This document shows, piece after piece, positions 4,629-39,904 of a stretch of 40,420 nt of DNA (position 1 is the stretch's first letter; each line of letters starts with the position of its first letter). The DNA is from Candidatus Aenigmatarchaeota archaeon. Its GTDB lineage: Archaea > Aenigmatarchaeota > Aenigmatarchaeia > GW2011-AR5 > GCA-2688965. Where the stretch lies: positions 1 through 40,420 of the forward strand of contig JBDRKV010000048.1 in the NCBI GenBank assembly GCA_043813745.1, written 5' to 3'. The position numbers and the translations under genes are program-made. The notes beneath the pieces were generated by a model, which worked only from the letters and a program-made list of their open reading frames with translations, had not been told where the DNA came from and did no database searches.

Positions 4629-4986
4629 GCTTATTTCATGGATTTGTAAATTTAATAACTAGAAATTTATTCAGGTATGGCCGAAGCAGTTCTAATTAAG
4701 CCGCACATCATATAAAGTTCGTTATTAACAAGTACTTCTGGCATGCTGTAACGCAAATTAGGACAATGAAAATCTGGACGCATTCCTTCAGTCTTATGAG
4801 CACTAAGCAAGCAGCAAGTGTATGTCAGTTTATCCTTCTCGAACGTTCCTTGCTCACTACCATTATTCCCAATACAATGACATACCTTTCTACTTCTACT
4901 ATCGTCTAGCATACGAATCTGATTTAAGCTATGCCCAAAACCTTTTTAAGCATTCATATTGAAAGATAACAAAATCCGTGATTGCA

Positions 4987-7624: not shown

Positions 7625-8923
7625 TTAAAACCAAGCGCGCAGCGTCCGCTGCTGTCTGTACGCTCCAAGCACATTGCTTGCCTTCAGCAAGCTATCAATT
7701 GATTTTTTAGTTTGCATGCGCACATGTTTCAGCGCCTCGTCTAGCGTTGCAAACGTTTCTTTATATGGAAAAATAGTAATACCGTCAGCCCCATGTTCTT
7801 TAGATTCCAAGGAGCGTTTCTTACAAGAAAAGCTGCTTCTAACGTTCTCCCTGCATTCCCACACGCCTACAGGAACAGAGTATTCAGGCATGACCTCGCG
7901 CAACACAAGCACGCTTGCCTGCCGACGAATCCTGCTTAGATATTCAGCCACAGCAAACCTTACAGCATAGTACCCGCCCTCGCAGTTGCTTGCATAGTTT
8001 TTGCGGCCGAAGAAGTTTTCATAGTCCGTAGACACAGCCGGCGCAGCCGTAGGATTCCATAATGAGTTTCCGTACCACAGTTCTATCAGTTCAAACGTCC
8101 ACGTACCAGGCATAAACAGTATGTAGAACTTGTTTCCAAGATATTCATTGACATATAGCTCAAATGTATTTATCGTATCAAACCTGCGTATCTCTTTGAG
8201 CATGCTCTTAGCAAGCATGTCATCCGTCGCTGTAATCGACCAGCGCGTTGGAACCAGTTTTTTCTGCGACTTAAGCCCGAGCAAGCCTACGGAAAGTATG
8301 CGCATTAATTGGTTGACGTCAATACCATATCCATAGAGTTCGTTCATTGCTTCTACAGCTTTCAGCTCGTCGCTGACAATTTTGTCTACTTTCGTCAGCA
8401 CGTGCGGATTTTCCTCCAGCTTCACTGCTTTTAATATAGCAGGCGCTCCAATCGGCGGCGTTGTTAAATCCAGTTGCATCGCAACATAAGGCTTTTTCTT
8501 CAGAAAGAATTCCGTAGATGGCGGCTTCGCCGCCATCGCGATCTCCTGCGCTACTTCCAGCGTCTTTGTTTCCGAGCGCACGCTGGTGCGCTCGCGTGAA
8601 TGAATGAGCTGCGTGCGCGCATCCATAATGTCTTCCAAGCCATAGCTCTTTTCATACCAGAAAGTCGGCGCATCAAGCTTCCAGGCATCGCTGCTTACGC
8701 TGGCAGGAGAGAGCAGCCCGATATTAATTTCCGGATAGCCCGCGCGCCCGACAAACGGCGAAACTCCGGAAGCGTTAAAGTTTTCCTTCAGCCTGGCTAT
8801 TTCCACTTTATGCACGTTCAATCGTTCAAGTATTGGACACGGCTTGCCGCAGAGATTTTTGCCCTTACACCTTATGCATAATGTAGATATTTTCCCGAGG
8901 CTTTTCTCAAAAGGCTCTAGCAT
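7625..8923 (-). CDS. nreA: Nre-family DNA repair protein (archaeal)
   Basis: N-terminal Cys cluster CIRCKGKNLCGKPCP, and the length and overall pattern of Nre_N/Nre_C proteins as I recall them. Confidence 0.6.
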   Translation of the reverse strand: MLEPFEKSLGKISTLCIRCKGKNLCGKPCPILERLNVHKVEIARLKENFNASGVSPFVGRAGYPEINIGLLSPASVSSDAWKLDAPTFWYEKSYGLEDIMDARTQLIHSRERTSVRSETKTLEVAQEIAMAAKPPSTEFFLKKKPYVAMQLDLTTPPIGAPAILKAVKLEENPHVLTKVDKIVSDELKAVEAMNELYGYGIDVNQLMRILSVGLLGLKSQKKLVPTRWSITATDDMLAKSMLKEIRRFDTINTFELYVNEYLGNKFYILFMPGTWTFELIELWYGNSLWNPTAAPAVSTDYENFFGRKNYASNCEGGYYAVRFAVAEYLSRIRRQASVLVLREVMPEYSVPVGVWECRENVRSSFSCKKRSLESKEHGADGITIFPYKETFATLDEALKHVRMQTKKSIDSLLKASNVLGAYRQQRTLRAWF

Positions 8924-17128: not shown

Positions 17129-17551
17129 TTAACGTTTTGATTGCTGTTTTGTCCTTCTCGGTCCGGCAGACGAACGGGATGGTTTGTGTCTTTCCGTACG
17201 CCTGGCATCCGATATCAGTATGCTCCTATCGTATTTCAGGAATATGTCTTTTAAAGCCTTATTCTTGCCGCGGCCGAGTCGCGCGAGCAAAGCATTTCCG
17301 ATTGCTGTCCGTACAGCATCAGCCTGCCCCCAAACGCCTCCGCCACGCACGTCCACGTTTATGTCAATATCATTCGGATTTCCAGCTAGGACTAGCGGCT
17401 CCATTGCGCGCATGAGTACATATCCTCTCCACACGCTATTAATGGGTTTTGAATTTATGCGCACATTACCCTTGCCCGGAAGCACGAAAGCCCGGGCTAT
17501 TGCTTTTTTCCTCTTGCCCATACCGATAATTATTTTTTTCTTTGTTGCCAT
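17129..17551 (-). CDS. rps9: ribosomal protein S9 (uS9)
   Basis: GKRKKAIARAF...RINSKP... and a C-terminal RRTKQQSKR. Alternative in-frame starts lie at 17569 and 17590, inside repeat A1. Confidence 0.9.
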   Translation of the reverse strand: MATKKKIIIGMGKRKKAIARAFVLPGKGNVRINSKPINSVWRGYVLMRAMEPLVLAGNPNDIDINVDVRGGGVWGQADAVRTAIGNALLARLGRGKNKALKDIFLKYDRSILISDARRTERHKPSRSSAGPRRTKQQSKR

Positions 17552-17567
17552 TTTTTTATCTCTTTTC

Positions 17568-17603
17568 ATGAAAAATCTCAACGAAATCATAAGATTTCAG
17601 TTG
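17568..17603 (-). repeat. family A hairpin element, copy A1 (between rpl13 stop and rps9 start)
   Basis: mRNA sense: CAACTGAAATC-TTAT-GATTTCGTTG AGATTTTTCAT. Confidence 0.7.
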
Positions 17604-17608
17604 TAAAT

Positions 17609-18010
17609 CTATTTACCACCCAGTGATTTTGATAATTTGCCTATGGTTATGTACTTGCACTTTACCTCTTTCTTTCCTAATGTTGTAACTGGTTTCCCTT
17701 CAAACTCTTTTGGAACGCCAAGATGCACCTTCAGGCGCGATATCAATTCCTTTCCTTTCTTTGATTTGTAGTCAATCATTCCACGCACAGCACGCAATAC
17801 GATGCCATTCGACGTCTTCGGAAAGAATGGTCCGTGAAACCGCGAGCCCTTTCTGCGCCTTTGAAAATAGAAGTTCGTCGTGCTTTTGGGATCGCCTGTG
17901 ATTATGATTTTCTCAGCATTGATTATGTCTACTGCTTCTCCAGTTTTCAATTCCTTCACAACACCCACAGCCAGTCTTCCAAGAACCGCATTTGTTCCGT
18001 CTACTATCAT
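17609..18010 (-). CDS. rpl13: ribosomal protein L13 (uL13)
   Basis: IVDGTNAVLGRLA...INAEKIIITG. Confidence 0.9.
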   Translation of the reverse strand: MIVDGTNAVLGRLAVGVVKELKTGEAVDIINAEKIIITGDPKSTTNFYFQRRRKGSRFHGPFFPKTSNGIVLRAVRGMIDYKSKKGKELISRLKVHLGVPKEFEGKPVTTLGKKEVKCKYITIGKLSKSLGGK

Positions 18011-18018
18011 GTCATCAC

Positions 18019-18321
18019 CTAGATTATTATCCTTCCGCTAATTTCACTGCCAATAAGCTTTTCAATACTGATCGCCTTTCCACTCGCCTTCACCAACTTG
18101 TCAGACGCTTTTTTGGAAAATCCGTAAGCATATATCGTAACAGGTTTAGTAATGTTTCCGTCAAGCACCTTGCCCGGAACGATGATTGTTTCATTTTCCT
18201 TCGCAATCGCATCTATCTTTGTCAGCCCGATGTCCAAATCACTCTTCAGCCTGCGGGCTATTTCCTTGCACATGGGCTTCCTCATTCCACAAAACTTTTC
18301 AATCAATTTTCTTTTTTCCAT
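18019..18321 (-). CDS. rpl18e: ribosomal protein L18e
   Basis: VPGKVLDGNITKPVTIYAYGFSKKASDKLVKASGKAISIEKL. It sits in the canonical position before L13. The track start 18333 lies inside repeat B3. Confidence 0.8.
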   Translation of the reverse strand: MEKRKLIEKFCGMRKPMCKEIARRLKSDLDIGLTKIDAIAKENETIIVPGKVLDGNITKPVTIYAYGFSKKASDKLVKASGKAISIEKLIGSEISGRIII

Positions 18322-18379
18322 GGTATTCACCATATTGTTTCTTTTGAACCCAAGGGCCTTTTCTTTACAAAGAAAAGGG
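18322..18379 (-). repeat. family B-like element, copy B3 (5' of rpl18e), diverged
   Basis: AAGCCCCTTTTCTTTGTAAAGAAAAGGCCCTTGGGTTCAAAAGAAACAATATGGTGAATACC. It has the same hairpin layout, with stem changes compensated. Confidence 0.6.
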
Positions 18380-18400
18380 GCTTATGCCGGGGGTGAGATT
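18380..18400 (-). repeat. exact 21-bp duplicate of the tRNA-Leu 3' end plus trailer
   Basis: gcttatgccgggggtgagatt occurs at 18380-18400 and at 18491-18511. Confidence 0.9.
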
Positions 18401-18490
18401 ACTGGAAAAGACCGTGAGTCTTTTCAGTTCCCGACGAGCTTTGCTCAGTCGCGGATGAACTCCGTTCAAATCTTTATATTAATCCTGTGA
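18401..18490 (-). repeat. 90-nt three-hairpin insert (element X) between the two tRNA-3'-end copies
   Basis: Minus sense: TTAATAT..., then hairpins CGGA-GTTCA-TCCG, CGACTGAGC-AAA-GCTCGTCG and ACTGAAAAGAC-TCACG-GTCTTTTCCAGT. Confidence 0.7.
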
Positions 18491-18495
18491 GCTTA

Positions 18496-18664
18496 TGCCG
18501 GGGGTGAGATTTGAACTCACGAAGACACTAAGTCACAGGATTTCTTAAATCCAGGTTAATATTTTATATCAACCCACTTTTCTTTGGATTCCAAGGAGCC
18601 TTTCTTTTTAAAGAAAGGCTGCTTCTTAAGTCCTGCCCCGTTGACCAGACTTGGGTACCCCGGC
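18496..18664 (-). tRNA. tRNA-Leu(UAA) with an 83-nt intron (exons 18664-18625 and 18541-18496)
   Basis: Hand-folded. Acceptor GCCGGGG/CCCCGGC, anticodon stem CAGGA/TCCTG, loop CTTAAGA, variable arm GACTTAGTGTC, T arm GTGAG-TTCAAAT-CTCAC, discriminator A. No CCA is encoded. Confidence 0.85.
18542..18624 (-). repeat. family B element, copy B1 (the tRNA-Leu intron)
   Basis: Near-identical to 39692-39763 over about 70 nt: GAAGCAGCCTTTCTTT..AAAGAAAGGCTCCTTGGAATCCAAAGAAA...GGTTGATA.AAAATATTAA. Confidence 0.85.
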
Positions 18665-18724
18665 CTAGTCTAATCATGGAAACGGGATTTATTAAACATT
18701 TGTTGATTTGTATTCCTGCTTGCA

Positions 18725-18754
18725 GTTTTCCGCAAGCCATGTTTTAAAGGGCTT
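18725..18754. repeat. family E partial copy (3' half)
   Basis: GTTTTCCGCAAGCCATGTTTTAAAGGGCTT. Confidence 0.55.
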
Positions 18755-18760
18755 GGTTGG

Positions 18761-18827
18761 GGTTTCCAAGGGATACATGGATACGAAGTATCCGTGGTTT
18801 TTCCGCAAGCGCTTTCCTAAAGGGCTT
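18761..18827. repeat. family E element, copy E1 (between rpoD stop and tRNA-Leu promoter)
   Basis: GGTTTCCAAGGGAT-[CATGGATAC GAA GTATCCGTG]-GTTTTTCCGCAAGCGCTTTCCTAAAGGGCTT. Confidence 0.8.
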
Positions 18828-19611
18828 ATTTAACACTTTTCTTCAGTTCTTTCTCGAACTCTTTGGCATCCGCCTTCATACCATCCAGCGCTGCCATCAG
18901 GACGTATTCAATGGGCTTGCCGGATATGCTCTCGGCTGTAAACAAAAATTTGCTGTCGTCTCCGCTGACTTTCGTCGCGCCGGATGCAACGCATTTCATA
19001 CACATGTTGCAGCGGTCGTTGTTCGTGACAACTATCTTCCCGTCTCTTTTTGAAAAGACATTTTTAGGGCACATGCTCATCGCTTCCTCGGGTTCGCCCT
19101 CGTCTGTGAGCGACACTTTTGGGTTGTATTTGTACCCGACCACAGCTGCCTGGTGCTTTGCATGCGAGCTGCCACAGCCGAGTTCTGCAGTTGCTTCGAA
19201 CTTTATCTGCTGCCCTTCAAGCAGTTCTATTATCGGCACGCCTGCAGCAGCCGGCTTGACGCTGCCGTCAGTTGATTTCATGTCCTCTCCATGCACAATG
19301 CACGGCCCGGTTTTATCTAGCACGAGCGTAACCTGGCAATGACTGCAACCATCCTTACATTTGCACTTGTCACGTTGTTTGAAAACCTTTTCATCAAACG
19401 TCAATGGTATCAAACCTAATCTGTGCGCTATGATCTCGTCGAATAAGCCTGAATTGTTTTTTTCGAAATAAACCTCTTTAATCGCCATCGTGGACACGCC
19501 TGTCATCATGTAACGCCTCAATGCATTTGCAAAAGCAGGATTACTCTCCTCCAGTACAAATGTCATCTTCTCTTTGGACTTTTTTTGCACATGTATTTTC
19601 ATAAAAATCAT
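18826..19611 (-). CDS. rpoD: DNA-directed RNA polymerase subunit D (Rpo3) with ferredoxin-like Cys cluster
   Basis: AFANALRRYM, GLIPL, Cys clusters CKCKDGCSHC and CNMCMKCV. It sits in the canonical S13-S4-S11-RpoD order. Confidence 0.9.
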   Translation of the reverse strand: MIFMKIHVQKKSKEKMTFVLEESNPAFANALRRYMMTGVSTMAIKEVYFEKNNSGLFDEIIAHRLGLIPLTFDEKVFKQRDKCKCKDGCSHCQVTLVLDKTGPCIVHGEDMKSTDGSVKPAAAGVPIIELLEGQQIKFEATAELGCGSSHAKHQAAVVGYKYNPKVSLTDEGEPEEAMSMCPKNVFSKRDGKIVVTNNDRCNMCMKCVASGATKVSGDDSKFLFTAESISGKPIEYVLMAALDGMKADAKEFEKELKKSVK

Positions 19612-19614
19612 CTC

Positions 19615-19645
19615 GTTTTCCGCGAGCGCTTTCCTAAAAGTTTCA
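19615..19645. repeat. family E partial copy E3 (fills the rps11-rpoD spacer)
   Basis: GTTTTCCGCGAGCGCTTTCCTAAAAGTTTCA. Confidence 0.55.
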
Positions 19646-20038
19646 TTACATTCTCCTCCCCCTTCTTCCGCCCTTCTCTTTTATCGAGTCATGTGGAACC
19701 GGGGTCACGTCCTCAATGCTGCCTATCCTCATTCCGGTGCGCGCAAGCGAGCGTATGGCTGGCTGGGCGCCAGCTCCTGGTATCTTGGCCTTGTTCCCGC
19801 CAGGCGCGCGAACCCTTATGTGGACGTGTGTTATGCCTGCATCTCGGGCTTTTTCAGCAGCTTTTTGGGTCGCCTGCATTGCAGCAAATGCCTTGCCCTT
19901 GTGGCTGCCGCGCTGCGTGACCATGCCGCCTGAAATGCGCGCAATCGTCTCAGAGCCTGTTATGTCTGTTATGTGAACTATCGTATTATTCTGGGATGCG
20001 TAAATATTAACAATTCCCCATTTTTCCTTAGCTTCCAT
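19646..20038 (-). CDS. rps11: ribosomal protein S11 (uS11)
   Basis: [18 protein letters not shown] ... VRAPGGN ... GPGAQ-like segment. Confidence 0.9.
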
Positions 20039-20588
20039 CCTGCTTCACCTCTTCTACGACCTTTTCTACAACAGGTTTGTCGCTTTCAGCATCTTCAACT
20101 TTTTCAACAGCCTTCTCTTTTTTAGCTGGCATTAAAACTTTAATCTTATCTTCAATGTCCCTGGTAACTATTAAACTGGGCTTGTTCGCACGTCTACTGC
20201 CAATTAGCACATGCTTATGTAATATAGCTTGTCTGGCATGCTTTATAGAGCCCGCAAGGCCCTTTTCAAATACGTATGACTGTAACCGCCTTCTGAGCAG
20301 GCTTTTCAGTTTAAGGTCCAGCACGTCATCCAGCTGCGCCTCTTTTTCAACCAGCCCAATCCTGTACAGCTTGTCAATAAGCTCCTTCTTTTTTTGCTCA
20401 TTTGTAGATGCCTGCAAGTCTCTTGCACGACCGCGTATGTTCCTAAGCATGGTCTCTGCACGCCAGAGCTCCTTCTTGCGCCTAAGCCCGAACTCGTCCA
20501 TTAGCTTGCGCTCCTCTTCCAGGCGCTCCTTGCTAAACGGGCTCTTTGGTCTGCTGTACGCCCTTCGTTGCATCTTAGGATGTCCCAT
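20028..20588 (-). CDS. rps4: ribosomal protein S4 (uS4) with acidic/Lys-rich C-terminal extension
   Basis: [18 protein letters not shown]...ELWRAE...S4 domain. An alternative ATG lies at 20597. Confidence 0.9.
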
Positions 20589-20667
20589 GTTTTTCATCTC
20601 ACTTAAATATGAAAAATCTCAACGAAATGTCAATTTCAGTTGCATGTTTTTCATCTCACTTAAATAT
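20586..20667 (-). repeat. family A copy A2 (20611-20642) flanked by an exact 25-bp direct repeat (20586-20610 and 20643-20667) containing the rps4 start
   Basis: catgtttttcatctcacttaaatat occurs twice. The core in mRNA sense is CAACTGAAAT-TGAC-ATTTCGTTG AGATTTTTC. Confidence 0.85.
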
Positions 20668-20672
20668 TAAAA

Positions 20673-21290
20673 CTATTTCTTTCCTGTCTTGGCAGCCATC
20701 GCCTTCTTTTTTATCACGCCGACTGTCTTGTTCTTGCGCGAAGTCGAGCGCGTCCTTTGGCCACGCACAGGCAGACCGCGTTCATGGCGTATGCCCTTGT
20801 AAGCGCGTATCTTTTGCAGAAGATTTATATCCGTTCTTTTCTTCAAATCTATGCTACCACCAATCAAATGTTTGTCCGTGGAGTTTACCATCCATTTTGG
20901 AAACTGGCTGTTTCGTATCGTTTCCTCCAGCTTCTTGATATCTTCCTGCGTCAATTCTGATATCTTTTTCCTGGCATCAATTCCGGACAGCTTCGCTACA
21001 ATATCAGCAGTATGAAAGCCAATGCCTTTTATCTCATTCAGCGCGCGTACCACAGAAAAGCTGCTGTCTATGTCAGTAGAAAGTATGCGTACTATGCCGC
21101 CGCGTATCCTGTACTTTTTGGCTGCTGGCGCAGCTTCTCGCGGGCCTATTTTAGGCGCCTTCTTTTTTGCTTCTCCGCTTTCAACGGATTTGGATGATTT
21201 CGACGCACTTTGTGCGTCAGTTCCTCTAGCTTTATCTACTTTCGCTTCATTCTTTGATTCATCTTTTGGCTTTTTAGTCAAATCAGACAC
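20673..21290 (-). CDS. rps13: ribosomal protein S13 (uS13) with roughly 55-aa Lys/Ser/Ala-rich N-terminal extension
   Basis: ILSTDIDSSFSVVRALNEIKGIGFHTAD...RTRS. The track start is GTG 21290. TTG 21281 follows an AGGTGTCTGAT context. Confidence 0.85.
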   Translation of the reverse strand: MSDLTKKPKDESKNEAKVDKARGTDAQSASKSSKSVESGEAKKKAPKIGPREAAPAAKKYRIRGGIVRILSTDIDSSFSVVRALNEIKGIGFHTADIVAKLSGIDARKKISELTQEDIKKLEETIRNSQFPKWMVNSTDKHLIGGSIDLKKRTDINLLQKIRAYKGIRHERGLPVRGQRTRSTSRKNKTVGVIKKKAMAAKTGKK

Positions 21291-22640: not shown

Positions 22641-22679
22641 TAATATGGTCTAGACTATTCCAAGGGGAATAGGGTAGTG
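22641..22679 (+). promoter_or_regulatory. family D leader, copy D1 (5' of rps27e), single hairpin
   Basis: TAATATGGTCTAGA CTATTCC-AAGG-GGAATAG GGTAGTG. Confidence 0.65.
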
Positions 22680-23960: not shown

Positions 23961-24056
23961 TAATATGGTATATGCTCAAAGGAATGAATTCCTTTGGCAT
24001 CTCAAAGGTATTCTATGAATGCCTTTGCAGAGACTATTTCAGGAGGAATAGGGTAT
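23961..24056 (+). promoter_or_regulatory. family D leader, copy D2 (5' of the PAC2-family gene), three hairpins
   Basis: TAATATGGTATATGC..., then CAAAGGAAT-GA-ATTCCTTTG, CAAAGGTAT-TCTATGA-ATGCCTTTG, and GA CTATTTC-AGGA-GGAATAG GGTAT. Confidence 0.65.
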
Positions 24057-25870: not shown

Positions 25871-25912
25871 TAATATGGTGCTAGACTGATTCCGAAGGAA
25901 TCAGGATAGGTG
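25871..25912 (+). promoter_or_regulatory. family D leader, copy D3 (5' of the MEMO-family gene), single hairpin
   Basis: TAATATGGTGCTAGA CTGATTCC-GAA-GGAATCAG GATAGGTG. Confidence 0.65.
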
Positions 25913-25918
25913 TCTTAT

Positions 25919-26707
25919 ATGAGAGCACTTGGTTTCTATCCTGTCGACCCGGAAAAGCTGGAAAAGCAAGTAACGTCTTTTCTAGAACAAGACGTCAAGC
26001 CCGTGCAGGATGCACTGGGCGCAATCGTTCCGCACGCAGGCTACCCTTTCTCAGGCATGCTTGCTGCGAAAACGTTGAAGGCTGCGAAAACCAAGAATCA
26101 TCGTTTCATAATCATGGGTCCGAACCACATGGGACACGACACGCTGATAGATAATGGAGAATGGCGCACGCCATTGGACAAGTTGAAGTTGGACAACGAC
26201 TTCATAAAGAAATTGAATATCAAACAAGATTCGACGTTAGAACATAGCATTGAAGTCCAGCTGCCCATATTGCAGAAACTATACAACGACTTTAGTTTTG
26301 TTCCATTAGTTGTAGGTCCGAACACCTTCGACGAACTAAAGCAGCTTGCAAAGCAGCTGATGACAAGCGACCATTTCTATATAGCAAGCAGCGATTTCAT
26401 CCATTTCGGCCCGAACTACAACTACGTGCCTTCTGAAGCCGGTCCAGGCCAGCAGGACCAGCTGAAATGGGTCAAGAACATTGACCGAAAGCTTGCAGAA
26501 TTAATATGCAATCTGAAAGCAAAAGAATTTTTTGAAGAAATCGAGAAAAAAGAGTATACAGTGTGCGGCTACCGCGCAATAACGCTCTTCATGCTGCTCA
26601 TGGAAAAGCTCGGAGCCAAGCAGGGCCAGACAATCGACTACGCAACAAGTTACGACGTTTACCCAAATCACTCCTTTGTTTCGTACGTGGGTTTCGTGTT
26701 TAGTTAG
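25919..26707 (+). CDS. MEMO1-family protein (AmmeMemoRadiSam system protein B)
   Basis: GAIVPHAGYPFSG, IIMGPNH and SSDFIHFG. Confidence 0.8.
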   Translation: MRALGFYPVDPEKLEKQVTSFLEQDVKPVQDALGAIVPHAGYPFSGMLAAKTLKAAKTKNHRFIIMGPNHMGHDTLIDNGEWRTPLDKLKLDNDFIKKLNIKQDSTLEHSIEVQLPILQKLYNDFSFVPLVVGPNTFDELKQLAKQLMTSDHFYIASSDFIHFGPNYNYVPSEAGPGQQDQLKWVKNIDRKLAELICNLKAKEFFEEIEKKEYTVCGYRAITLFMLLMEKLGAKQGQTIDYATSYDVYPNHSFVSYVGFVFS

Positions 26708-26770: not shown

Positions 26771-26819
26771 TTACCCAAATCACTCCTTTGTTTCGTACGT
26801 GGGTTTCGTTTTCAGTTAA
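26771..26819 (+). pseudogene. duplicate of the last 15 codons plus stop of the MEMO-family gene
   Basis: 49 bp, 46/49 identical to 26659-26707. All three differences are at third codon positions (GTG/GTT, TTT/TTC, TAG/TAA). Confidence 0.85.
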
Positions 26820-27405: not shown

Positions 27406-27507
27406 TTAATATGGTCTATCTGAGAAGGTATCATTTAGATACCTTCTAGATTTTGAAGACATCCGAGATGTCTTCACAAAGACTGATGCAAAAGCATCAG
27501 GGTAGGG
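27406..27507 (+). promoter_or_regulatory. family D leader, copy D4 (5' of tRNA-Ser), three hairpins
   Basis: TTAATATGGTCTATCTG, AGAAGGTATC-ATTTA-GATACCTTCT, AGATTTT, GAAGACATC-CGA-GATGTCTTC, ACAAAGA, CTGATGC-AAAA-GCATCAG, GGTAGGG. Confidence 0.7.
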
Positions 27508-27547
27508 TTTGTCGTTTTTAAATGATGCTTGATAAAAAATCTAACAT

Positions 27548-27693: not shown

Positions 27694-27794
27694 TAATATG
27701 ATCTATCTGAAAAGGCTTTCAAAGAAAGCCTTTTAGATTTGGAAGACATCTTTGATGTCTTCACAAAGACTGTTCTAAGAAGAACAGGGTAGTG
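27694..27794 (+). promoter_or_regulatory. family D leader, copy D5 (5' of rpl10e), three hairpins
   Basis: TAATATGATCTATCTG, AAAAGGCTTTC-AAA-GAAAGCCTTTT, AGATTTG, GAAGACATC-TTT-GATGTCTTC, ACAAAGA, CTGTTCT-AAGA-AGAACAG, GGTAGTG. Confidence 0.7.
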
Positions 27795-27801
27795 ATTCAA
27801 A

Positions 27802-29905: not shown

Positions 29906-30202
29906 CTATTGCTTTGTCTCTGGCTTTGTCAGCTCGAATTTCTTTACACGAAAACCAGTGCCCATGACATGCGTTTTTTTGCACACCTCGCACGTATATC
30001 GCAAGTCCTTTTTGCGCGTCGGCTTTTCACGTCCCTTAGGATTCTCTTTAGGGAACGAACCATAACCCTTAAGCTTCCTGCGGAAGCGCCGTTGACTTTT
30101 AGTCGTCTCTCTACGCGTGTGTCGCTTTGCCTCGCTCACGCTATGCATACTATGCTTCCCACAAAACTTGCAATATCTTTTTTGCTTCTTAGGCATTTTC
30201 AT
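29906..30202 (-). CDS. rpl44e: ribosomal protein L44e (eL42)
   Basis: KRYCKFCGKHSMH...LRYTCEVCKK zinc ribbon, and a very basic composition. Confidence 0.9.
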   Translation of the reverse strand: MKMPKKQKRYCKFCGKHSMHSVSEAKRHTRRETTKSQRRFRRKLKGYGSFPKENPKGREKPTRKKDLRYTCEVCKKTHVMGTGFRVKKFELTKPETKQ

Positions 30203-30224
30203 CTGAATTACCTCTATATTGAAG

Positions 30225-30264
30225 ATGAAAATCTCAGCGAACTTGTTCAGCTGAAGATTTTCAT
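30225..30264 (-). repeat. family A copy A3 (5' of rpl44e)
   Basis: mRNA sense: ATGAAAATCTT CAGCTGAAC-AA-GTTCGCTG AGATTTTCAT. The stem base pairs differ from A1/A2 in a compensated way. Confidence 0.7.
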
Positions 30265-30416
30265 ATAAATCACCTGATATTTTTTGGTAAGAGTAGATAC
30301 AGTCAGAAGAAGCCTCCCAACATATATCCCAACTAGCTCACCCGATTCTTACTTAAGTTTAGGCACAGAACCGCCCGAAGCAAAGCTTCGGAAAGTCATT
30401 GAGCCAATATCGTTTA

Positions 30417-32381: not shown

Positions 32382-33785
32382 TTAAACACTACCATGCATC
32401 CTGCCATAATGCCTGTTCAGCGACTTCATGTTGGAAAACGCCTTGTCGCACTTGTTGCACTTGTAGACGTTTCCAAGCGCAGCGTCATCTTTTTGTTTCT
32501 CCAGGCGTGATTCGAACTTCTTGAACGGGTATGTTATGGGATTCCTTATTTTCCTGCTTATGCACATCTCATCCGGCCTGCAAATGCCGTTGCCAATAGA
32601 TTTGTAGAAAGCCTCGTTGTAGCAGTTTGCGGGCAGCGTCTCGCCGCCGACATGATATCGCAACTGCCCTATCAGAAGCGAGCGCGGCAGCGGCCGCGGA
32701 TTATTTTCATTCCATTGCTGCACGCGTTCTATGATTTCCTCGGTAGTCCAATTCATCCGATTCAGGAAGTTTATGAGCGTGAACATTGAGCGCTTTCTGC
32801 CGTCAGCCAGACCGTTTAGGATTAGTTTGATGCAAGGCGGAAAGTCGCTTTCCAGCATCTTTTGTGTAATGGGATTTCTAGGAACTTTCTTCACGACTTT
32901 TATTTCCTCTTTCTTCTGGCGCGCATTCCAGTCTATGGCATCCAAAAGCAGGTTTTCTATTTCAACGTCGTCAGTGCTTTTGAAAAAGGGAGTTTTCAAA
33001 TGTCTTCCAACATGTTCTGGCAGCGCCATTATCATATCAAATGCTTCAAGCGTTTGTTTTGTTAGAGGAATCGATGCTAGCCACTTCTTCTCATTCAAGG
33101 AGAAAGGCGCGCGAAACATGTGTCTGTTGCTCCACCCGCGCTCCAGGTCAACGAAATAGAACGGCTCAAGCGTGCTGGCAGGCTCGTCCAACAAATCGCT
33201 TAGCTTTTTGTATGTTTTCAGCTTGATGAGCGCATGCATCAATGATTCGCTTATTTCGTTTGCAATGAAATTAGCCAGAATTTTCGGTATCTCCGGGTAT
33301 CGTTTTGCCGTAGGTTTATAATCTATCTCCTTTGGAAAAGCATTCCACGGAATAACCAAGTGAAAGCCTCTTGAGCCAGAAAACTTCATGCCGTAATTCT
33401 TAATCCCGTATTTTTCAAACAGCCGCAAAATTTCCAAAGCACAGGCCTTTGCGCCGTCTATGCCTATCTTACTGTCCATGTCCAGGACAAAATCAAATCC
33501 AGTGCGCAGCTCGTTTTGTTTCTCCTGCGTCGCGCTGGCTAACATCATCGCATTGCTCCATCTTTCAACGCTAAAGTGAAACGAAGTTATCCCTTTGTTA
33601 GCCATATTTTTGATGTCGCTCGCGTACTGAACGATATTAGGCCGCTTGTCGTAGCGTCCGTCCCAGTACGCGCCAGCAACCTCTCGCTCTTGCGCGTCCG
33701 CAACCATCCGGTTAAGCAGCTCTTCGTTGTTGTAATATTGCGCGACCTGCTGCATGTTTAGCGGTTTCGGCGTGAAAGTAGACAT
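32382..33785 (-). CDS. priS: DNA primase: PriS catalytic domain fused to PriL-CTD-like Fe-S domain and a C-terminal C2H2 zinc finger
   Basis: FDFVLDMDS and FSGSRGFHLVI (AEP motifs). FPPCIKLILNG...RSMFTLINFL plus three later Cys (PriL-CTD pattern). YKCNKCDKAFSNMKSLNRHYGRMH. The TATA-like TTAAAAAATATAAG fits ATG 33785. Confidence 0.8.
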   Translation of the reverse strand: MSTFTPKPLNMQQVAQYYNNEELLNRMVADAQEREVAGAYWDGRYDKRPNIVQYASDIKNMANKGITSFHFSVERWSNAMMLASATQEKQNELRTGFDFVLDMDSKIGIDGAKACALEILRLFEKYGIKNYGMKFSGSRGFHLVIPWNAFPKEIDYKPTAKRYPEIPKILANFIANEISESLMHALIKLKTYKKLSDLLDEPASTLEPFYFVDLERGWSNRHMFRAPFSLNEKKWLASIPLTKQTLEAFDMIMALPEHVGRHLKTPFFKSTDDVEIENLLLDAIDWNARQKKEEIKVVKKVPRNPITQKMLESDFPPCIKLILNGLADGRKRSMFTLINFLNRMNWTTEEIIERVQQWNENNPRPLPRSLLIGQLRYHVGGETLPANCYNEAFYKSIGNGICRPDEMCISRKIRNPITYPFKKFESRLEKQKDDAALGNVYKCNKCDKAFSNMKSLNRHYGRMHGSV

Positions 33786-33836
33786 ATGACCACAGATAGA
33801 TTTGCACTTATATTTTTTAATAATCAATAAATTTCT

Positions 33837-38946: not shown

Positions 38947-39678
38947 CTAAAAATTCTCCTGTATGAACCGTTCCAGATAGATTAGTTCATTCGGATTTCC
39001 GAACGGTACCCAATAACTCTTCGCCGGCACGATGCGAACTTTGTGCGCATCTGCGAGCAGCTGCACAGCAGACGTGATTTCGTATTCTCCGCGCTCTGAG
39101 CGTTTTATTTTTTTCAGCGCCTCAAAGATGTCAGGCGTGAACTTCCACAAGTTCGCGTTAACAAGCTTGTCTTGATAGAACTCCTTGATCTCACCAGCAG
39201 ACGGCTTTTCAACAATCCTGCGCAGCCATCCCTGCTGGTCTGTCGAAAGTACAGCGTATTTTGTGGGGTCCATTGCACGATAGCCCATGCCATAGCAAAC
39301 GTCGTCGTTAATAACTTTCTTGAACCGAGCCATGTCATCCGGCGAATACAAGTCATCGCCGTTGACCATTACAAAGTTTTGCCCGGCAACGAAGTCTTCC
39401 GCAGCTTTCACAGCATCGCCTGTGCCTCTTGGCTCTGGCTGGTTGATGAAAGATATTTTCATGTCAAAATAGTGCTTGTTCTTCTTTACCCAGTCCTCCA
39501 TCATTTCTTTCTTGTAATTTACAACAATGCCCACGTCAGTCGCGCCGGCAGTCTTAAGGTTGTGTAGTAACCAATATAGGAACGGCTTGCCGGCTACAGG
39601 TATGAGCGGCTTTGGTATCGTAGCCGTAAGAGGCATCATGCGCGTGCCCTTTCCAGCAGCTAAGAGAACGACTTTCAT
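38947..39678 (-). CDS. sugar-phosphate nucleotidyltransferase (RfbA/GlmU N-domain-like)
   Basis: MKVVLLAAGKGTRMMPLTATIPKPLIPVAGKP. Confidence 0.8.
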   Translation of the reverse strand: MKVVLLAAGKGTRMMPLTATIPKPLIPVAGKPFLYWLLHNLKTAGATDVGIVVNYKKEMMEDWVKKNKHYFDMKISFINQPEPRGTGDAVKAAEDFVAGQNFVMVNGDDLYSPDDMARFKKVINDDVCYGMGYRAMDPTKYAVLSTDQQGWLRRIVEKPSAGEIKEFYQDKLVNANLWKFTPDIFEALKKIKRSERGEYEITSAVQLLADAHKVRIVPAKSYWVPFGNPNELIYLERFIQENF

Positions 39679-39763
39679 TGAAAAAAACCTTCCTTAATAT
39701 TTTGTATCAACCATATGTTTCTTTGGATTCCAAGGAGCCTTTCTTTACAAAGAAAGGCTGCTT
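39679..39763 (-). repeat. family B element, copy B2 (immediately 5' of the nucleotidyltransferase ATG)
   Basis: Same core as B1. Its 3' end supplies AATATTAAGGAAGGTTTTTTTCA just before the ATG. Confidence 0.85.
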
Positions 39764-39788
39764 CTGCAGCTAAGAGGACTATTTTCAT
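39764..39788 (-). pseudogene. relic duplicate of the first 25 nt of the nucleotidyltransferase gene
   Basis: ATGAAAATAGTCCTCTTAGCTGCAG versus the gene's ATGAAAGTCGTTCTCTTAGCTGCTG, which is 21/25 identical. Confidence 0.75.
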
Positions 39789-39835
39789 ATTTTCATCTCC
39801 GATGAAAATCTCAACGAATGCAATGCATTCAGTTG
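39789..39835 (-). repeat. family A copy A4 (upstream of the relic nucleotidyltransferase start)
   Basis: mRNA sense: CAACTGAATGC-ATT-GCATTCGTTG AGATTTTCAT CGGAG ATGAAAAT. Confidence 0.7.
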
Positions 39836-39904
39836 CAGATCATCACTCTGCAATTATTCGATGAAAAATTTAAATAGATTTAATTAAGCTCTTAATTAAA
39901 TATA

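Follow-up and report, generated by a model that had tools for sequence, protein, structure and literature searches.

Small hairpin repeats upstream of gene starts, with long duplications of initiation regions, on a contig of a DPANN archaeon

Introduction

Repeats of the REP/BIME type, which are mobilised by RAYT/TnpA-REP proteins, are found in bacteria; they carry a conserved 5' GTAG, are usually located 3' of genes and do not duplicate their target. In translational attenuators and start-masking hairpins, such as the ermC and cat leaders and the fourU thermometers, a short uORF is combined with a hairpin and a U-rich strand that pairs with the initiation region. MITEs are elements of 50-800 bp that end in terminal inverted repeats of 10-15 bp or more and have target duplications of a fixed length of 2-10 bp; the archaea with the highest MITE densities include one with a woesearchaeal genome (PMC11602168). 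Finally, hairpins promote template switches during replication, a process that yields perfect stems without G-U intermediates (PMC8794818).

Here, we describe a family of hairpin repeats, called family A, in a deep-branching, uncultured DPANN archaeon. The window that we analysed is an entire contig of 40,420 nt. An earlier note on this DNA had reported a hairpin at the start of rps4 and further copies of its core at other loci. We compare these copies with one another, with related loci and with the systems above.

Results

The rps13-rps4 junction

Pfam analyses confirmed the presence of S13, S4, S11, RpoD, L13, S9 and L44e in the window, as well as that of a complete nucleotidyltransferase (38947-39678). 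The closest S4 proteins in a homology search, labelled Woesearchaeota or Aenigmatarchaeota, are 47-52% identical to that of the contig (best 52%), so that this search revealed no close relative, and exact-protein look-ups for S4 and S11 returned zero matches.

On the + strand, the 25-mer CATGTTTTTCATCTCACTTAAATAT is found in two identical copies, at 20586-20610 and 20643-20667, separated by the 32-nt core GAAAAATCTCAACGAAATGTCAATTTCAGTTG (20611-20642) that comprises the hairpin and its tail. Read in the sense of the mRNA, the rps13 stop codon TAG is followed by TTTTA, a first ATATTTAAGTGAGATGAAAAACATG, the hairpin of Table 1 joined to AGAUUUUUC, a second ATATTTAAGTGAGATGAAAAACATG and GGACAT..., which belongs to rps4. 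The exact 25-bp duplication of the initiation region around a 32-nt core, as described in the earlier note, can be extended to 30 nt with a single mismatch, TTTTA versus TTTTC (20586-20615 and 20643-20672; 29/30), a match reached by none of 2000 shuffles. The upstream 25-mer begins 5 nt past the rps13 stop. This decoy opens an 11-codon uORF, MKNMQLKLTFR*, whose stop is the conserved TGA within GTTGAG. The S4 product in the database (186 aa, MGHPK) begins at the second ATG of the downstream 25-mer.

Table 1. Coordinates of the family A copies (c1 to c4) and of the features around them
Feature	Position	Strand	Remarks
Copy c1	17567..17603	-	Between rpl13 (stop 17611-17609) and rps9
rps4 coding sequence	20028..20588	-	S4 domain
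Downstream 25-mer at c2	20586..20610	-	Working rps4 initiation region; second ATG (20588-20586) is the start of P0001
Conserved 3' tail of c2	20609..20619	-	AGAUUUUUCAU; last two bases common to the downstream 25-mer
Hairpin of rps4 copy (c2)	20620..20642	-	CAAC-U-GAAAU-UGAC-AUUUC-GUUG
Upstream 25-mer at c2	20643..20667	-	ATATTTAAGTGAGATGAAAAACATG in mRNA sense; decoy with Shine-Dalgarno-like GTGAG and two ATGs; repeat runs on to 20672 with one mismatch
rps13 ORF	20673..21290	-	Stop TAG 20675-20673
Downstream arm of c3 repeat	30195..30220	-	AATATAGAGGTAATTCAGATGAAAAT; real rpl44e Shine-Dalgarno and start (ATG 30202-30200)
Copy c3, 5' of rpl44e	30225..30264	-	Near-perfect 40-nt palindrome ATGAAAATCT-T-CAGC-T-GAA-CAAG-TTC-GCTG-AGATTTTCAT
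Upstream arm of diverged c3 repeat	30257..30281	-	AATATCAGGTGATTTATATGAAAAT; decoy Shine-Dalgarno site and ATG
Relic nucleotidyltransferase start	39766..39788	-	ATGAAAATAGTCCTCTTAGCTGC; 23-nt direct repeat, 87%, of the real start 39656-39678
Copy c4, 5' of the relic start	39802..39844	-	Partial upstream arm GATGATCTG 39836-39844

Structure of the family A hairpins

The 14-mer TTCGTTGAGATTTT occurs four times at 0-1 mismatch, always on the - strand. We built a covariance model from the four cores and searched the window with filters off. The model identified exactly four members, with scores of 42-47 bits each, at the four loci where the same core had been noticed before. The remaining matches, at 17.8 bits or below, are the reverse strands of two partly palindromic copies and one chance match (4766-4794; 17.5 bits), which lacks a stem and falls within a small Cys-rich ORF. 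The family consensus is CA(A/G)C-U-GAA...UUC-G(U/C)UG-AGAUUUU(U)CAU, for a length of ~35-40 nt. The 4-bp foot, one bulged U, GAA/UUC and the tail AGAUUUU(U)CAU are constant, and the distal stem and the loop vary among copies. The one bulged T that had been pointed out in all copies is indeed conserved across the family of four.

The modelled base pairs are Watson-Crick throughout in 4/4 copies, and two of them show double-sided changes, namely an outer A-U replaced by G-C in the rpl44e copy and an inner A-U replaced by U-A in the fourth copy. One of the compensated stems listed in the earlier note, GAAC/GTTC in the rpl44e copy, is sterically impossible, as it would leave a 2-nt loop; the inner stem of that copy is GAA/UUC closed by a CAAG tetraloop. 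With four sequences this covariation is statistically weak, being equalled by 45 of 500 shuffles. Folding predicts the hairpin in every copy, with a fold clearly better than those of shuffles only in c3 (z = -2.7). The inverted arms differ as well: c3 has 10-nt arms (ATGAAAATCT/AGATTTTCAT), the arm of c2 comes from the duplicated target, that of c4 is broken by a 3-nt gap, and c1 has none. The tail has the appearance of a GAGAU akin to a Shine-Dalgarno site, followed by a U-rich spacer and AU(G).

We also looked for resemblance to known RNA and DNA elements. When the whole window was scanned against Rfam at the gathering threshold, tRNA-Ser alone passed and family A had no match. A sensitive Rfam scan of positions 17400-20800, a region that includes c1 and c2, gave snoR20a on c1 as the sole match to a copy (20.8 bits versus a threshold of 42, E = 7.7). 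A hint of box C/D sequences proved to be noise: a perfect GUGAUGA upstream of c4 is just 7 nt from CUGA, and it is missing in the other copies. We rejected a bulge-helix-bulge intron, as the 4-bp helix CAAC/GUUG is present but the bulge on the 5' strand is a single U, where two 3-nt bulges are needed; the AGA on the 3' side is paired in c3 and c4. An attC-like site was discarded as well: in spite of the resemblance of GTTGAGA to GTTRRRY, no array of cassettes is present, and essential genes surround the copies. Finally, an archaeal TATA box within the 25-mer would be ~17 nt from the ATG, which is too short a spacing.

Flanking duplications and related loci

Smith-Waterman comparisons of the flanks with shuffled sequences revealed a direct repeat around c3, in which 21/25 positions match, a score reached by 1/2000 shuffles. 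Its content is a ribosome-binding site followed by ATGAAAAT. This duplication is significant, older and diverged; the c2 copy looks like a recent insertion and would represent the youngest event. The same comparison found no significant direct repeat around c1, where the CAU of the tail, together with the G after it, supplies the first in-frame ATG of the rps9 ORF. At c4, the flanks share a 9-nt match, below significance (p ~0.08). The relic and real nucleotidyltransferase starts downstream of c4 are separated by an 87-nt, intron-like insert from another repeat family. The downstream, real copy of this start carries its own ribosome-binding site, AAGGAAGG.

In five related loci, the S13-S4 spacers are 2-4 nt long, and the L13 and S9 genes overlap by 4 nt in the three of these loci that have them. 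The covariance model detected no family A member in these five loci. As the relatives have tight junctions devoid of hairpins, the hairpins are lineage-specific, derived insertions into once-tight junctions. An insertion at rps4 accompanied by duplication of the initiation region, as the earlier note proposed, fits both the anatomy of the copy and the near absence of a spacer at this position in relatives. Motif pattern scans of GTDB genomes and JGI metagenomes yielded 9 and 13 matches, respectively, all of them single chance matches in unrelated bacteria or viruses and devoid of the inner stem. A looser pattern gave 10 matches in IMG/VR, rated as chance, the detailed inspection covering the GTDB and JGI sets. 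Searches of SRA/Logan runs identified no run containing the contig.

Could the 57-nt duplication be an artefact of metagenomic assembly, with the hairpin alone being real? That the window is a single metagenome contig speaks for this explanation. However, for an assembly graph to contain a path of the form A-X-A, there must be reads linking A to X as well as X to A. Moreover, the c3 duplication is diverged and four more duplications have mismatches between their arms, and assemblers do not make diverged repeats. We consider an artefact highly improbable.

Origin of the copies

At about even confidence, we interpret family A as a lineage-specific, non-coding, dispersed and non-autonomous hairpin repeat that was copied into the 5' edges of genes with duplications of variable length, probably by microhomology-guided template switching. 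At c2, a unit made of hairpin and tail would have been inserted into the short rps13-rps4 spacer, and 25-30 nt encompassing the ribosome-binding site and start codons would have been duplicated on both sides of it. The downstream arm would keep rps4 intact, and the upstream arm would turn into a decoy with a short uORF.

The mode of insertion that we infer is replicative template switching or a similar, microhomology-guided break repair, not a classical transposase. In a two-step switch, the strand would leave its target, copy the hairpin from another copy and return upstream of its point of departure via microhomology. A transposase would give a stagger of fixed length; we prefer template switching because the length of the duplication differs from one event to the next, from ~21 to ~104 nt, and a few bases are common to both sides of the junctions. 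At the c2 junction, the microhomology between the target TTTTAAT and the element end TTTTCAT gives the 30-nt repeat its one mismatch. The contig harbours four further duplications of A-X-A form around small inserts, of 48, 21, 23 and ~104 nt, which point to a general process with a variable stagger. In the ~50 ORFs of the window, Pfam and NCBIfam searches detected no transposase, integrase, Cas or reverse transcriptase domain.

Several observations weigh against this interpretation. The start-proximal, co-oriented position of 4/4 copies, and the constancy of foot, bulge and tail next to a distal stem that varies freely, would suit a selected RNA or a binding site for a protein just as well as they suit a selfish or neutral insert, and template switching alone does not account for the preference for ATGAAAA starts described below. 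Gene conversion might also account for the two c2 repeats being identical. In addition, the family consists of four copies on one contig, and the flanking repeats of c1 and c4 are below significance.

The direct repeats on both sides of the insert might alternatively reflect the action of a ruler-type enzyme (a Cas1-Cas2- or casposase-like integrase, or another transposase) that makes staggered cuts ~25-30 bp apart and inserts a hairpin DNA of ~30 nt, as in an off-target integration of a CRISPR spacer. Nivala et al. are said to have described, in 2018, such ectopic events as 'spontaneous CRISPR loci' or 'neo-CRISPR' (cited in PMC7054753). The repeat-spacer-repeat geometry agrees with this, with 25-30 nt around 27-32 nt at c2 and ~26 nt around 36 nt at c3, and spacer acquisition is known to duplicate the repeat (PMC7054753). 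However, the insert belongs to a dispersed family and is not a unique spacer, such repeats are missing at c1 and c4, and a ruler would not produce the other duplications of the contig, which measure 21, 23, 48 and ~104 nt and enclose inserts of 64-183 nt. The window also contains no cas or transposase gene. Such an enzyme is an improbable source of family A.

Placement of the copies and pairing of the tail

Each of the four copies is co-oriented with the gene that follows and located just 5' of its start, i.e. that of rps9 (c1), rps4 (c2), rpl44e (c3) or the nucleotidyltransferase relic (c4). An ATGAAAA is present 6-29 nt past the core in 4/4 copies, and the chance of finding one within 40 nt of a random position of the - strand is ~0.02 per copy. 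The association of the copies with ATGAAAA starts that had been suggested before is borne out within the window. ATGAAAA is found at 4 of the 49 listed gene starts; three of those four, plus the relic start, follow family A copies, and the remaining one, that of RpoD (GAGATGATTTTTATGAAAAT), has no hairpin. The sequence of the RpoD start region (19590-19625, - strand) resembles the c1 tail followed by the rps9 start, GAGATTTTTCATGAAAAG.

The tail is complementary to the ATGAAAA region over 7-9 nt across all copies, and over 8-9 nt in c2 to c4. In the latter three, the length of its U-run equals that of the A-run of the start (5/5 in c2, 4/4 in c3 and 4/4 in c4). An upstream arm of the ATGA... 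type is also present in 3/4 copies. The complementarity of the tail to the downstream start, described in the earlier note, is real; in c1, the CAU of the tail overlaps the AUG of rps9 and cannot pair with it. In folding calculations that restricted the pairing of the tail to one side at a time, the upstream arm is favoured by ~4 kcal/mol in c2 and c3, with a tie in c4. Masking of the downstream start by the tail is therefore not the predicted ground state: in c2 and c3 the tail favours the upstream decoy, and the predicted resting state keeps the real start open.

Once transcribed, the hairpin and tail could pair with ATGAAAA sequences; a decoy, where present, is predicted to sequester the tail, so that the true start would stay accessible. 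A regulatory effect, if there is one, would come about when ribosomes that translate the decoy uORF melt the decoy-tail helix and free the tail. A role of family A in regulating translation is plausible, and a switch operated by the decoy uORF of c2 is conceivable.

In a stronger version of this idea, family A would be a dedicated cis-acting translational switch that tunes the synthesis of S4, S9 and L44e, the duplications being selected parts of the device. A decoy start (segment 1), the hairpin, the anti-start tail (segment 2) and the real start (segment 3) would engage in alternative pairings, and ribosomes or a protein bound to the hairpin region (a ribosomal protein, for example, or one of the Sm-like type at the U-tract) would set whether the tail masks the real AUG. 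The position of 4/4 copies, co-oriented and <30 nt from an ATGAAAA start, is consistent with such a device, as are the matching U- and A-runs and the complementarity of 8-9 nt in c2 to c4, and the alternative pairings, which have equal energies in c4 and differ by ~4 kcal/mol in c2 and c3. Furthermore, the foot, bulge and tail are kept while the distal stem varies freely, and ribosomal protein genes account for 3/4 targets. However, we found no homologue of the element in the relatives examined or in Rfam, one copy stands before the dead start of a relic gene, and c1 has no decoy and a tail that overlaps the AUG. The fold z-scores are ordinary save that of c3, and the covariation among four sequences is weak. 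Copy c3 has diverged from the consensus to about the same degree as its flanking repeats have from each other, so there is no clear sign of purifying selection. On balance, we regard a dedicated switch as unlikely.

The stem-loop, with an A/U-rich stem, followed by U5 (c1 and c2) or U4 (c3 and c4) on the mRNA strand might instead suggest a transcript-end or processing signal, located between the genes of operons or at the 5' ends of mRNAs. It would terminate or attenuate transcription in the archaeal manner, or else determine RNase action or stability. Judging from the sequence, c3 and c4 may lie close to the 5' ends of transcripts, 3' of A/T-rich stretches that resemble TATA boxes. Nevertheless, a stop of transcription inside the S13-S4-S11-RpoD and L13-S9 operons would upset the balance among essential genes, and neither the ATGAAAA link nor the duplications would be explained. 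Four U residues are few for archaeal termination. A bacterial-type promoter and terminator scan of the region containing c1 and c2 was not informative and flagged neither copy as a terminator. We give this possibility little credence and retain the insertion of a hairpin repeat as our preferred interpretation.

Other repeats and duplications on the contig

The tRNA-Leu(UAA) gene (18496-18664, - strand) has an 83-nt intron at position 38/39. It was missed by default ARAGORN and by Rfam, and it was detected by ARAGORN with introns allowed. The 3' end of the intron repeats the sequence of the anticodon arm (CAGGACTTAAGA / CTGGATTTAAGA). The 3' end of the tRNA gene, comprising the T-arm and acceptor, is itself duplicated exactly over 21 nt (18380-18400 / 18491-18511) around a 90-nt insert. 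This is a classic signature of integration into a tRNA gene, though the insert is tiny.

A second family of repeats, (A)GAAGC-AGCCTTTCTTT-nn-AAAGAAAGGCT-CCTTGGAATCCAAAGAAA, forms most of the tRNA-Leu intron (18579-18626) and recurs in the 5' region of the nucleotidyltransferase gene (39718-39765), upstream of rpl18e (18338-18385) and, in a weaker version that is in frame, in the Nre ORF (7795-7842). It is a tRNA-intron-like element present outside tRNA genes.

The 3' end of a Memo-like gene is duplicated over 48 nt (96%; 26659-26706 / 26771-26818) around a 64-nt insert, in which a hairpin with a bulge and one copy of the repeat TTTTCCGCAAGCGCTTTC..AAAGGGCTTA are found. Further copies of this repeat lie in the S11-RpoD and RpoD-tRNA spacers (18726, 18799 and 19616). 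A leader module of ~104 nt precedes both tRNA-Ser and rpl10e (27407-27510 / 27694-27797; 80-91% identical). It has three consecutive hairpins, of which two have their stems replaced in one copy relative to the other, with full compensation. Three unrelated A-X-A arrangements have periods of 111, 112 and 110 nt (18380/18491, 26659/26771 and 39656/39766) in spite of repeats of 21, 48 and 23 nt, which could be a coincidence. A period of ~110 nt is close to the length of archaeal Okazaki fragments.

Yet another type of hairpin, with the + strand feet AGACU and GGGUA on both sides of a variable, perfect stem, is located directly 5' of the starts of S27e (22652-22676), PAC2 (24031-24055), Memo (~25885-25909), tRNA-Ser (27484-27506) and L10e (27767-27791). 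Hairpins in 5' leaders, with conserved feet and freely varying stems, seem to be a general feature of the genome. Last, a 481-aa ORF (32382-33827, - strand) has weak matches to both the PriS and the PriL primase domains and, judging from its sequence, may code for a fused primase.

Discussion

If the insertion of family A occurred as we propose, the contig records how very compact symbiont genomes, in which genes overlap or are joined by 2-4 nt, gain intergenic structure. Small hairpins would enter operon junctions, and the start (or end) of the neighbouring gene would be duplicated, so that gene function is preserved. Variable duplications of 21 to ~104 nt around tiny inserts are unusual for prokaryotic mobile DNA and point to a replication or repair route, not to a transposase. 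Under either reading, insert or regulator, family A is a clean lineage marker. Should translation be affected by the hairpin and its anti-start tail, they would represent a rare candidate for a cis-regulator of archaeal ribosomal protein genes. To our knowledge, no cis-regulator of these genes has been described in the phylum of the host.

The insertion and regulatory ideas might even be combined. Family A would then be a mini-element that seeks start codons, a 35-nt hairpin whose AUGAAAA-complementary tail directs insertion to starts or retains it there. The element would duplicate 25-30 nt of the initiation region and build a switch of decoy, anti-start and real start before ribosomal protein genes. 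It would be one case of a wider, so far undescribed process of insertion with long duplications in DPANN archaea that also moves the tRNA-intron-like element into coding regions. We regard this scenario as rather improbable and continue to favour a dispersed hairpin repeat spread by template switching.

How does family A compare with the described systems? With respect to layout, translational attenuators and start-masking hairpins offer a parallel, their short uORF, hairpin and U-rich strand being arranged as in family A. However, there is no relation in sequence or family, and the predicted ground state of family A keeps the real start open. With CRISPR spacer integration, family A shares the formation of a direct repeat of ~25-30 bp on both sides of an insert of ~30 nt; it differs in that the insert recurs at four loci, and the window has no array, leader or cas gene.

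The microhomology-mediated replicative insertions with duplication of the FoSTeS/MMBIR type resemble family A in the same manner as template-switch mutations do. The latter share with family A perfect stems without G-U intermediates, 'compensated' differences that affect whole stems, duplications of variable length and short homologies at the junctions (PMC8794818). Nevertheless, template switching is a mutational process and not a family of elements, and it predicts neither a foot, bulge and tail shared at four loci nor a preference for ATGAAAA.

Among mobile elements, MITEs share with family A that they are non-coding and occur between genes in multiple copies. Inverted repeats at the ends, which in family A are clear in c3, and flanking direct repeats of the target are further points in common. 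In contrast with MITEs, family A copies are 35-40 nt long, their duplications are variable (29/30 at c2, 21/25 at c3), and we found no partner transposase in the 40-kb window. REP/BIME repeats are the closest in size and shape. Both are imperfect palindromes of 20-40 nt with a conserved foot, a bulge or mismatch and variable tips, both are dispersed in intergenic spaces in multiple copies, and REPs are transcribed with their neighbours, as family A would be. Unlike REPs, family A is start-proximal, is associated with duplications of 25-30 nt and has the foot CA(A/G)C / G(U/C)UG, with no GTAG on either strand; the ORFs of the window code for no RAYT or Y1 transposase. Family A belongs with the small, palindromic, dispersed repeats, from which it is set apart by its long duplications of start regions and its link to ATGAAAA.
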